From the NCBI GenBank assembly GCA_017504405.1, contig JAFVRG010000021.1:89929-153928 (forward strand): a DNA stretch of 64,000 nt, read 5' to 3'. Positions 7,049 through 56,825 of the stretch are shown piece after piece. This DNA is from Clostridia bacterium. GTDB lineage: Bacteria > Bacillota > Clostridia > Oscillospirales > CAG-272. The notes under the pieces were generated by a model. That model was given only the letters and a program-made list of their open reading frames with translations. It ran no database searches and was not told the origin of the DNA. Position 1 is the first letter of the stretch. Each line of letters begins with the position of its first letter. The position numbers and the translations under genes were made by a program.

Positions 7049-7059
7049 ATTCCCCTCAC

Positions 7060-7108
7060 TGTATTACTTAACCAATACAATGATACACCATTCTTTTTCG
7101 TTTGTCAA
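7060..7108 (-). promoter_or_regulatory. promoter of the gntR operon plus a candidate operator
   Basis: On the minus strand: TTGACA (7103-7108), 17-nt spacer, TATCAT (7080-7085). This is followed immediately by the inverted repeat TGTATT-N8-AATACA (7060-7079) between the -10 and the RBS. Confidence 0.45.
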
Positions 7109-7177
7109 GACCTTTTTGTGTTTTTCTAAAAAAGTGTTGATTTTCATTATATTGTATTGAGCGTATTCTAACTTAAA

Positions 7178-7410
7178 ATCAAGGCAAAATCCTTGTATAT
7201 CATCAATTTCGAGAGAAATTGTATATCATCAACACAAAGTGTTGTATAGACGCTCGCAGGCTCGCTATTCCGTCGCTTCGCTCCTTACATCAAGCCGCAG
7301 GAGAATCCAGCCCCAGAGGGGCTGATGAGATACAAGGGCGGCTCGCCGCCCTTGCATGATATGCGCCGCACTTCGTGCGTCGATGATATGCCAAGCCTGC
7401 GGCTTGGATA
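7178..7410. repeat. hairpin/10-mer array, copy A (partly degenerate)
   Basis: GTATATCATC at 7195-7204 and 7221-7230, with a degenerate third copy at 7244-7253. Reverse-complement-like copies are GATGAGATAC 7324-7333, CATGATATGC 7355-7364 and GATGATATGC 7382-7391. Spacers are perfect hairpins at 7180-7195, 7205-7220, 7231-7243, 7308-7324, 7333-7354, 7367-7379 and 7391-7407. Confidence 0.7.
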
Positions 7411-7453
7411 AAAAAATACTGCAGAAAATATGTCATTTTCTGCAGTGTTTTTT
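7409..7453 (-). terminator. intrinsic terminator downstream of the orphan ORF (bidirectional shape)
   Basis: CTGCAGAAAAT-atgtc-ATTTTCTGCAG flanked by an A-run and a T-run, about 80 nt after the stop at 7536. Confidence 0.6.
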
Positions 7454-7535: not shown

Positions 7536-7907
7536 TTATATTTCTGAGTAATAATGGCGCACCAACACCCAACTTTTCTTTTTCTTCTCTGTTTTATGCT
7601 CAATTCCGAAATCACTGCAACCCAACAGAACAGCTATATGAACCCTTTTATCTTCGCTATTGATGTCTTGAATTAAACTTATTACATTACAATTATCTTC
7701 GTGAAAATGACCAATTTCAAATAATTTACTTTTGCGACGTGAATACAAAACGGTAGTTTCACGATTATCAACAAGAAAACGCAAAAAAATGCCGCCCAAA
7801 TCCCATGAAAATTCATTATCACTTATTATTTCCACCGCTCCCTTTAATTTGGCAGAGTTTACAAATTCCATCACAGCTAAAACTTCTTCTTTATTGTCTA
7901 CACTCAT
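7536..7907 (-). CDS. hypothetical protein, 123 aa, no family recognised
   Basis: ATG-initiated ORF with its own promoter (see 7951-7979), a GGAG 12 nt upstream, and a terminator. It is markedly AT-rich compared with its neighbours. Confidence 0.55.
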   Translation of the reverse strand: MSVDNKEEVLAVMEFVNSAKLKGAVEIISDNEFSWDLGGIFLRFLVDNRETTVLYSRRKSKLFEIGHFHEDNCNVISLIQDINSEDKRVHIAVLLGCSDFGIEHKTEKKKKSWVLVRHYYSEI

Positions 7908-7950: not shown

Positions 7951-7979
7951 ATTATATCACACTATCGTAAATAAATCAA
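7951..7979 (-). promoter_or_regulatory. sigma-A-type promoter of the orphan ORF
   Basis: Minus strand: TTGATT (7974-7979), 17-nt spacer, TGaTATAAT (7951-7959). The -35 overlaps the first hairpin arm of array B. Confidence 0.5.
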
Positions 7980-8147
7980 GGCTAAACCTTGTATATCATC
8001 CGCAACTTGTTGCGGTATATCATCAAAACGCAGTTTTGTATATCATCATTGCGAAAGCGATGCAACCTGCGGTTGATGATATACGCCTGCGGCGATGATA
8101 TCCAACCTTAAGGGCTGATGATATACCATTGCTATCGCAATGGATAC
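7975..8147. repeat. hairpin/10-mer array, copy B (clean copy)
   Basis: Three perfect GTATATCATC (7991-8000, 8015-8024, 8038-8047). Then GATGATATAC (8075-8084, 8117-8126) and GATGATATCC (8094-8103). Spacers are hairpins at 7977-7991, 8001-8014, 8025-8037, 8047-8062, 8063-8075, 8085-8093 and 8126-8143. Confidence 0.8.
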
Positions 8148-8177
8148 AAAAAACGACAGGCAACACCTGTCGTTTTT
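8147..8177 (-). terminator. intrinsic terminator of tRNA-Leu
   Basis: ACGACAGG-caaca-CCTGTCG with a T-run on the minus strand, immediately after the tRNA CCA end. Confidence 0.7.
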
Positions 8178-8261
8178 TGGTGCGGGCGACAGGAATTGAA
8201 CCTGCACATCGGAGATACCAGATCCTAAGTCTGGCGCGTCTGCCAATTCCGCCACGCCCGC
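8178..8261 (-). tRNA. tRNA-Leu (anticodon UAG), class II with long variable arm, CCA encoded
   Basis: The reverse complement reads GCGGGCGTGGCGGAATTGGCAGACGCGCCAGACTTAGGATCTGGTATCTCCGATGTGCAGGTTCAATTCCTGTCGCCCGCACCA. Acceptor GCGGGCG/CGCCCGC, anticodon stem CCAGA/TCTGG with loop CTTAGGA, and a GGTTCAATTCC T-loop. Confidence 0.95.
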
Positions 8262-56721: not shown

Positions 56722-56825
56722 CTCTACCTTACCTCTCTTAAAAGCCTTATAATATTGCCCGTAGACGGATTTAAACCGCCACCTTTGAAACCAACGCTCT
56801 CACTTAAGCTATCAGGGCATATAAA

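Follow-up and report, generated by a model that had tools for sequence, protein, structure and literature searches.

Introduction

Intergenic repeats of the REP, BOX and Correia types shape transcription, mRNA stability and genome plasticity. BOX of Streptococcus pneumoniae (boxA-boxB(n)-boxC) is a modular intergenic repeat of Firmicutes that is non-coding and has a strong predicted structure; the Correia/NEMIS repeats of Neisseria are small and non-coding, form long hairpins and provide neighbouring genes with terminators and outward promoters. The attC sites of integrons, which bound gene cassettes, are recognised by structure, as a folded single strand with conserved short flanks and a variable stem/loop. 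To our knowledge, almost all known intergenic repeat families are sequence-defined and come from Proteobacteria or streptococci. The element treated here, array B, lies at positions 7975-8147 of a 64,000-nt stretch of DNA (the window) on contig JAFVRG010000021.1 of a Clostridia bacterium (assembly GCA_017504405.1) and is built of a 10-nt linker repeated between short hairpins. The family to which it belongs inverts the usual repeat design, since its hairpins are free to vary and its linker is fixed, and the hosts are abundant, mostly uncultured gut and rumen Clostridia. The chances are judged about even that array B belongs to a modular, non-coding DNA repeat with dispersed copies, carried by Oscillospirales-type Clostridia of the gut and rumen.

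Layout and distribution of the arrays

An earlier note on this DNA had described array B as three direct 10-mers followed by three inverted ones with short palindromes between them, and this layout was borne out when the sequence was checked. On the + strand, GTATATCATC stands at 7991, 8015 and 8038, its reverse complement GATGATATAC at 8075 and 8117, and an inverted copy with one mismatch, GATGATATCC, at 8094. With up to one mismatch allowed, the 10-mer was matched 17 times in the window against 3.6 ± 1.9 expected (0 of 100 shuffles reached 17), and all eight perfect copies in the window lay inside array B and a degenerate second copy with the layout and orientation of B, array A (7176..7407, no strand assigned). 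The spacers were the palindromes that had been listed, and the one at 8104-8116 was weak, as had been said; the central CATTGC-gaaa-GCGATG, which had been given as perfect, contained one T.G apposition. Folding, proposed in the same note as a check, was run against shuffles and gave -66.6 kcal/mol (z -7.3) for the + strand and -67.6 (z -5.9) for the - strand as RNA, and -39.7 (z -8.0) and -39.8 (z -6.3), respectively, as DNA.

Array B can be divided into two halves. The promoter-proximal half (7975..8047, + strand) comprises ATCA, a hairpin at 7977-7991, GTATATCATC at 7991-8000, a hairpin at 8001-8014, GTATATCATC at 8015-8024, a hairpin at 8025-8037 and GTATATCATC at 8038-8047. The tRNA-proximal half (8048..8146, - strand) comprises ATCC, a hairpin at 8127-8144, GTATATCATC at 8117-8126, the weak hairpin at 8104-8116, GGATATCATC at 8094-8103, a hairpin at 8085-8093, GTATATCATC at 8075-8084, a hairpin at 8062-8074 and the centre of the array. 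The 10 nt 3' of the third direct copy, here called segment X (8048-8057; ATTGCGAAAG on the + strand), are the exact reverse complement of the loop and one arm of the last hairpin, at 8127-8144.

Figures for the family rest on a scan in which each species was represented by one genome and the pattern GTATATCATC-N8-22-GTATATCATC had to match exactly; it gave at least 120 loci, and an array was taken to be three or more copies of the 10-mer. Among the matches listed, 107 of 120 loci held 114 arrays, all of them intergenic, and nearly all loci came from metagenome-assembled genomes of gut or rumen Clostridia labelled Acutalibacteraceae, Oscillospiraceae, Eubacteriales or Clostridia. The order of the 10-mers was direct-then-inverted in 88 of the 114 listed arrays and inverted-then-direct in none, and 25 had one orientation only; the commonest form was three plus three copies over ~150 nt. 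A second array was present in 7 of the 120 listed loci, and the window itself has two copies. DNA matches to the window in other species covered the arrays only, at 79-93% identity over 80-197 nt, and the flanks were without match.

Contigs of viruses were scanned with the same pattern, and of the 44 loci obtained a single one (L159) was a true array. The others were unrelated tandem repeats in which the spacers were typically 0-50% Watson-Crick, with two palindromic spacers of 8 nt, and they therefore serve as a natural control for the palindromic spacers of the Clostridia arrays. A plasmid or phage element was rejected as a candidate on this result and on the absence of any match by blastn against plasmids.

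Compensatory changes in the hairpins and conservation of the linker

Spacers collected from the related loci (n = 298, 180 of them unique) were 9-29 nt long with a mode of 13, and 80% had the form 5'-A...T-3'. The earlier note had allowed that the hairpins might be incidental if further copies turned up with spacers that were not self-complementary; symmetric positions in the 298 spacers were instead Watson-Crick in 94.3% of cases, against 28.9% after letter shuffling. In an alignment of 39 elements, the local hairpins were 97.2% paired (74.3% with partners shuffled) and contained 246 double-change cells against 64.5 in shuffles, none of 500 shuffles being as high. Through these compensatory changes the claim that hairpin formation is preserved while the sequence is free was confirmed. 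The usual block is a perfect palindrome 5'-A...T-3' with a stem of 4-8 bp and a loop of 3-4 nt, flanked by the 10-nt linker. As a separate observation, some spacers (L167:12-40, L115, L052 and L117) were long hairpins with the linker core at the apex (e.g. CGCCTTGCCGAGTATATCTCGACAAGGCG), and these look as if a larger palindrome enclosed a linker.

Wobble pairs accounted for 3 of 1207 hairpin cells in the 39-element alignment, and their near-absence argues for DNA palindromes rather than RNA made from one strand. In window orientation, G.T and A.C appositions were about equal in number in the 298 spacers (21 and 23); when unique hairpins were oriented so that the linker reads GTATATCATC, G.T was in excess (35 against 14 A.C, p = 0.004). 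It follows from this excess that the better-pairing strand is opposite in the two halves of an element, which disfavours a single transcript and favours two polar arrays that face each other.

A complement of X of at least 8 nt was exact in 56 of 78 elements and fell into at least six covarying sequence classes. Pairing of X with the terminal hairpin, loop position included, amounted to 98.5% against 73.3% in shuffles (0 of 500 as high). The tRNA-side half of the array is bracketed in this way by an inverted repeat of 10-13 bp; the complementarity of X may reflect a long-range helix or, alternatively, a terminal inverted repeat around that half.

The linker was counted where two perfect palindromes stand exactly 10 nt apart (n = 359). 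Its consensus is GYATATCATC, with eight of the ten positions 94-99% conserved (in per cent: G98, Y (T77, C20), A99, T99, A83, T96, C94, A99, T96, C98). The complementary 10-mers had been proposed in the earlier note to form a rod of three 10-bp helices. No covariation was found for such pairing: pairs of 10-mers were 93.6% paired against 94.2% in shuffles, the covariation score was 0.029 against 0.035, and the nested register gave no gain over shifted registers. In about half of the elements the innermost inverted copy reads GATGAGATAC, and an uncompensated A.G mismatch was present in 21 of 42. The rod is thermodynamically possible and is not supported by comparison. Arrays of one orientation fold as hairpins parted by 8-10 unpaired nucleotides, like beads on a string; their existence and the lack of compensation in the 10-mer indicate that the linker is a sequence signal and not a helix partner. 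The 10-mers are spaced 19 to 39 bp from centre to centre, and with spacers of 9 to 29 nt there is no helical phasing.

An extension of each hairpin into the linker by a C10:G1 pair, a bulge and three further pairs was tried and rejected, since it was not predicted by thermodynamic folding and its rare variants were uncompensated; the invariant C10:G1 pair and the variable linker positions 2 and 5 would agree with it as an idea. Resemblances of the linker or the array end to a DnaA box, a Fur box or a rolling-circle nick site amount to partial matches. In one locus (L034:2415-2600) the linker changes from GATGATATAC to GATTCCATAC (three to four copies), and the variants that come next are GAGGACATAC and GATTACATAC. 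Constant throughout are the outer GA and the final ATAC, and it is the positions between them that vary.

Turnover between strains

Array A was compared with a sister strain represented by two contigs of one sample (L172 and L166), the flanks of which are 100% identical to the window. In the sister strain, an intact three-plus-three array with its own promoter follows the open reading frame (ORF) that lies between arrays B and A in the window, and a shortened array stands on the gntR side. When array A was aligned with these, its first 107 nt corresponded to the array of L172 and the rest to that of L166; the crossover lies within GCGGCG(C/T)ATATCAT. Array A is thus a recombinant in which the two arrays on either side of an accessory block of the sister strain are joined, and as such it marks either the joint of a deletion or the insertion site of the block. 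The two contigs are presumably adjacent in one genome. In the place taken by array A alone in the window, the sister strain (L172:5758-7766, L166:1-140) has no fewer than three additional genes between its two array copies. Behind the intact array come an ORF of 118 amino acids that has no family, an immunity gene of WapI type (PF24716 at 37.6 bits) and a beta-eliminating lyase.

Hairpins were exchanged in other strains as well. In a strain with flanks 99.9-100% identical, the tRNA-side half of array B had other hairpins and the promoter-side half was identical, and in a strain with flanks ~95% identical array A had other hairpins. Of the contigs with an identical GntR (6 shown of 8), 5 of the 6 start at most ~460 nt upstream of gntR, four of them inside an array; breakage of metagenome contigs in arrays is expected for repeats.

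The third 10-mer of array A is split, at GTATA^CATC, by an insertion of 39 nt (7249..7287, + strand; GACGCTCGCAGGCTCGCTATTCCGTCGCTTCGCTCCTTA) that was recognised by sequence comparison. The same insert was found at the same point of the 10-mer and in the same orientation in L055 (reverse strand, ~230-280), and intact 10-mer sites without it are present in L168 and at L172:5869-5878, which suggests a tiny site-specific insertion that targets the linker. In another type of insertion, a sequence of ~44 nt (GGGAACCCCCAAAGCTCG.CAAGCTCGCTTCGGGGAACCCCTAC) interrupts the array's terminal hairpin within its loop at L046, L090:7139-7185 and L097:580-625; this insert may represent another mini-element lodged inside the arrays.

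Genomic context

On the - strand, which is the leading strand by GC skew, the order in the window is HAD hydrolase gene, tRNA-Leu, terminator, array B, promoter, ORF, terminator, array A and gntR-ABC operon. The tRNA-Leu(tag) gene (8178..8261, - strand; ARAGORN, Rfam tRNA 59.1 bits) has an encoded CCA and forms the transcription unit upstream of array B. Its CCA is abutted by a bidirectional intrinsic terminator (8147..8179, no strand assigned), a perfect 14-nt inverted repeat of the form AAAAAACGACAGG-loop-CCTGTCGTTTTTT, which is linked to the first array hairpin by a T-run and ATCC. This layout was seen in 46 tRNA-adjacent copies, and terminator hairpin families and promoter spacers recur with arrays beside different tRNAs (five or more for the terminators) and genes. 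Of 74 elements with enough flank, 40 had a tRNA gene within 160 nt; 13 isotypes were represented, always with the same polarity and never the other. Targeting of the CCA by the element was rejected as a candidate mechanism, since tRNA genes without arrays also show a terminator directly after the CCA, as is general for tRNA genes in these genomes. At L008, L032, L086 and L055 the usual terminator hairpin is replaced, downstream of GGATAAAAAAA, by a shared motif that ends in AAGGACAGTTT. Far from the arrays, on the window's - strand at 56756-56818, Rfam gave a match to tRNA that scores 35.6 bits and covers 63 nt, and ARAGORN made no call; this may be a truncated or unusual tRNA-like sequence.

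On the other side of array B, an outward promoter of sigma-70 type was predicted by promoter scan (7951..7979, - strand; TTGATT-17-TATAAT with TG before the -10 box, 10/12 matches), and its -35 box coincides with the conserved AATCAA array end, the last remnant of a linker. From its position, the predicted promoter would drive the ORF at 7907..7536. This ORF (7536..7907, - strand; 123 amino acids) was taken from the ORF list and is called as a gene in public assemblies; it forms a single-gene unit between arrays B and A and had no Pfam or NCBIfam match. Across the family, this promoter stood at a fixed distance in 22 of 80 loci when the pattern was strict; position counts over 62 loci put the share at about half. 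Between the ORF and array A lies a further bidirectional terminator (7411..7453, no strand assigned), identified as an inverted repeat and by terminator scan (- strand, 7446..7418). The gntR-ABC transporter operon has a near-consensus promoter, TTGACA-17-TATCAT, in the region 7050-7110 of the window (- strand), and within this region, between promoter and start codon on the same strand, an inverted repeat (GTATTGGTTAAGTAATAC) is a candidate operator. No promoter-like site was found by promoter scan on the + strand between 7000 and 8400.

The genes behind the outward promoter were unrelated in the 80 loci and included XRE and MerR regulators, sigma factors, membrane proteins and enzymes. The product of the neighbouring ORF, which the earlier note had considered as a binding partner of the array, is not upheld in this role, given that the ORF has no family and the neighbours of the arrays differ from locus to locus. 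A conserved neighbour protein or transposase was also sought by all-against-all clustering of 928 ORFs from 120 loci and was rejected; the clusters were an artefact (ORFs running through arrays) and generic ABC ATPases. One neighbour did recur: a four-helix-bundle protein of 115 amino acids (PF05635, the 23S rRNA intervening-sequence protein family) is the product of the promoter's first downstream gene in 10 of 80 loci (L005, L016, L025, L029, L042, L051, L052, L091, L113 and L120), and no other neighbour recurs so.

Interpretation

The reading preferred here, in which belief and doubt are about balanced, is that of a modular DNA repeat of REP/BIME or BOX kind with a protein partner that reads the single-stranded linker. 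The palindromes would fold as hairpins in single-stranded DNA, and the linker, single-stranded between them, would be read as sequence by a trans-acting protein common to these bacteria, for which an enzyme resembling a transposase or recombinase, or else a DNA-binding factor with a housekeeping role, would be a candidate. Units would be swapped, duplicated and lost through recombination or template switching at the linkers, and the complementarity of the arms would be kept perfect by intrastrand templated correction. A full element consists of two polar arrays on opposite strands, face to face, with a terminator on one side and often a promoter on the other. Such a cassette would punctuate transcription units, especially behind tRNA genes, in the order terminator, untranscribed spacer and promoter, and its arrays would be portable homology at places where accessory genes enter or leave. 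The design would imply that bacteria of different families share a conserved reader of the hairpin together with the single-stranded linker. The existence of the family, its anatomy, the pattern of covariation, the surroundings in the genome and the recombination are seen in the sequences themselves; what we infer is this reader, the single-stranded state and any selected function.

With a terminator and a near-consensus promoter, the cassette would mark the boundaries of transcription units in genomes that are poorly annotated. The arrays are a cause of broken metagenome assemblies, and they mark the turnover of accessory genes in at least one case, the joint beside a tRNA gene, where an immunity-protein gene is among those gained or lost.

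Several points weigh against the preferred reading. At 4-8 bp the stems are not long enough for unaided extrusion from duplex DNA, so that the single-stranded state must be assumed. No transposase or other conserved gene family was enriched near the arrays in the 120 loci. Neither a target-site duplication nor a clean empty site of the whole element was found, and the data therefore fit a spread driven by recombination as well as mobility. As terminators that abut the CCA are general, the cassette may in part be a feature of the tRNA gene and not of the repeat. Some arrays of one orientation (L037, L064, L073 and L115) stand between co-directional genes without an intervening promoter; these must be transcribed, and a role at the RNA level is possible there. 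The long-range complementarity between X and the terminal hairpin and the high conservation of whole half-elements across species would also fit a structured RNA.

A more far-reaching reading, which is tentative and held at clearly less than an even chance, takes the arrays as the substrate of a new protein-driven system of gut Clostridia in which the 10-mer between sequence-free hairpins is recognised as a single strand by a dedicated protein, with the preference for structure over sequence that is known from integron attC and REP/RAYT. The protein would seed, diversify and recombine arrays behind tRNA terminators, which would thereby become landing pads for self-contained gene cassettes; if true, the arrays would represent a mobile or recombination system of a new kind and not a passive repeat.

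It is unlikely that the window's + strand carries a gene for a structured small RNA that ends at an intrinsic terminator of its own. The RNA would fold either into the rod of 10-bp helices with side hairpins or into a multi-hairpin domain closed by X and its complement (X:X'), with the 10-mers as single-stranded junctions. Such a gene would account for a terminator that stands behind the element and accompanies it at various loci, for the strong covariation in all local hairpins and in the X:X' helix, loop nucleotide included, for half-elements that are 85-93% identical between species at non-orthologous loci and for the very stable predicted fold. It is contradicted by the result of the promoter scan on the + strand, and in 62 aligned upstream regions no conserved inward promoter was present, the hexamers found there firing away from the element; at many loci only ~50 nt lie between the element and a divergent start codon. 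The scarcity of wobble pairs and the G.T excess on opposite strands in the two halves are likewise at odds with a stand-alone RNA, and so are the 10-mer helices without covariation, the existence of one-orientation arrays, the exchange of units between near-identical strains, the recombinant array A and the absence of a match to an Rfam family.

A cluster of hairpins that acts at the RNA level on transcripts from either side, where it would block or insulate transcription and protect mRNA ends, is also improbable. In this case the AU-rich single-stranded linkers would be entry sites for an endonuclease, as proposed for REP within operons. The position of the element between terminator and promoter, or between cistrons, is as expected, the wobble-tolerant strand in each half is the one carried by a transcript that enters from outside, and one-orientation arrays fold with their hairpins parted by 8-10 unpaired nucleotides. 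Hairpin clusters have been proposed as termination units in one study (PMC8355165). What such a cluster leaves unexplained is the conservation of the linker to the nucleotide across bacterial families and the turnover of hairpins; moreover, one-orientation arrays are mostly placed so that the sense transcript has the less wobble-tolerant reading, and with a strong terminator before the array and a promoter after it little transcription should enter.

Very unlikely is a duplex-DNA operator array, in which a transcription factor or nucleoid protein bound to direct-then-inverted 10-bp sites would regulate or insulate the promoter, since the conservation of the 10-mer as sequence in both orientations and the position of the element immediately upstream of the -35 box in a third to half of the loci are offset by centre-to-centre spacings of 19 to 39 bp without helical phasing, by palindromic spacers for which it gives no reason, and by many arrays that have no adjoining promoter or lie between cistrons, with downstream genes of no common function.

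Comparison with known systems

In agreement with the earlier note, which had not recognised the architecture as a described element class, searches of Rfam 15, plasmids, the literature and REP surveys were all negative. In Rfam 15, no match to the arrays was obtained at gathering thresholds or up to E = 10 as a family assignment; tRNA alone reached threshold, and the best match overlapping the array up to E = 10 scored 24.4 bits against a gathering score of 48. No match was found by blastn in the plasmid collection. In the literature searched, the 10-mer did not occur in a relevant context, and nothing relevant was found on REP-like repeats in Clostridia or Ruminococcus or on repeats downstream of tRNA genes; REP surveys contained nothing like the arrays, the host range that they cover excluding Clostridia. 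The arrays are apparently an undescribed family of intergenic repeats. Type III toxin-antitoxin systems of the ToxI kind (tandem repeats of ~34-45 nt plus a toxin gene) were considered and rejected, the arrays having a period of ~23 nt, one half inverted and unrelated neighbours.

With CRISPR the arrays share the alternation of short constant sequences with variable ones and a content that depends on the strain. CRISPR repeats are 21-48 bp long and alternate with unique, non-palindromic spacers, whereas the constant part of the arrays is 10 nt and non-palindromic and the variable parts are self-complementary and 9-29 nt long; in addition, the orientation flips in mid-array, cas genes are absent and copies are dispersed at many loci. 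The likeness to attC lies in a logic of structure rather than sequence and in the position at cassette boundaries. The core sites RYYYAAC/GTTRRRY are, however, absent from the arrays, no integrase-like cluster was found near the arrays of the 120 loci, the units measure 20-30 nt against 57-141 and occur several per site, and the cassettes have their own promoter and terminator.

Like the Correia/NEMIS elements, the arrays supply a terminator and an outward promoter to neighbouring genes. Correia elements differ in having terminal inverted repeats of 26 bp, a TA duplication and near-identical copies; compared with these and with miniature inverted-repeat transposable elements, the arrays have copies that are 79-93% identical, an inverted repeat of 10-13 bp around the tRNA-side half and an interior made of a hairpin array, and neither a duplication nor an empty site of a whole element was seen. 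A variable number of internal modules is shared with BOX, in which, unlike the arrays, the modules are conserved in sequence; those of the arrays are structural apart from the linker, and the two have no sequence similarity.

In the way they would work, the arrays are like REP/BIME (Enterobacteria and Pseudomonas, with RAYT/TnpA-REP). REP sequences are extragenic palindromes, single or clustered, in both orientations and with conserved linker motifs, and the arrays too are extragenic clusters, with units in both orientations in 88 of the 114 listed; REP/BIME are also sited after genes and between cistrons, are hot spots for insertions and recombination and have been proposed to serve a cognate enzyme as hairpins in single-stranded DNA. 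A RAYT gene was not found near the arrays in the 120 loci. In contrast to REP/BIME, the flank GYATATCATC contains no GTAG or CGTC tag. The palindromes of the arrays are hypervariable even within one array (180 unique of 298) around a constant linker, the units are set in blocks of orientation, three direct and three inverted, rather than alternating, and the arrays are tied to tRNA terminators, carry a built-in outward promoter and have Clostridia as hosts.

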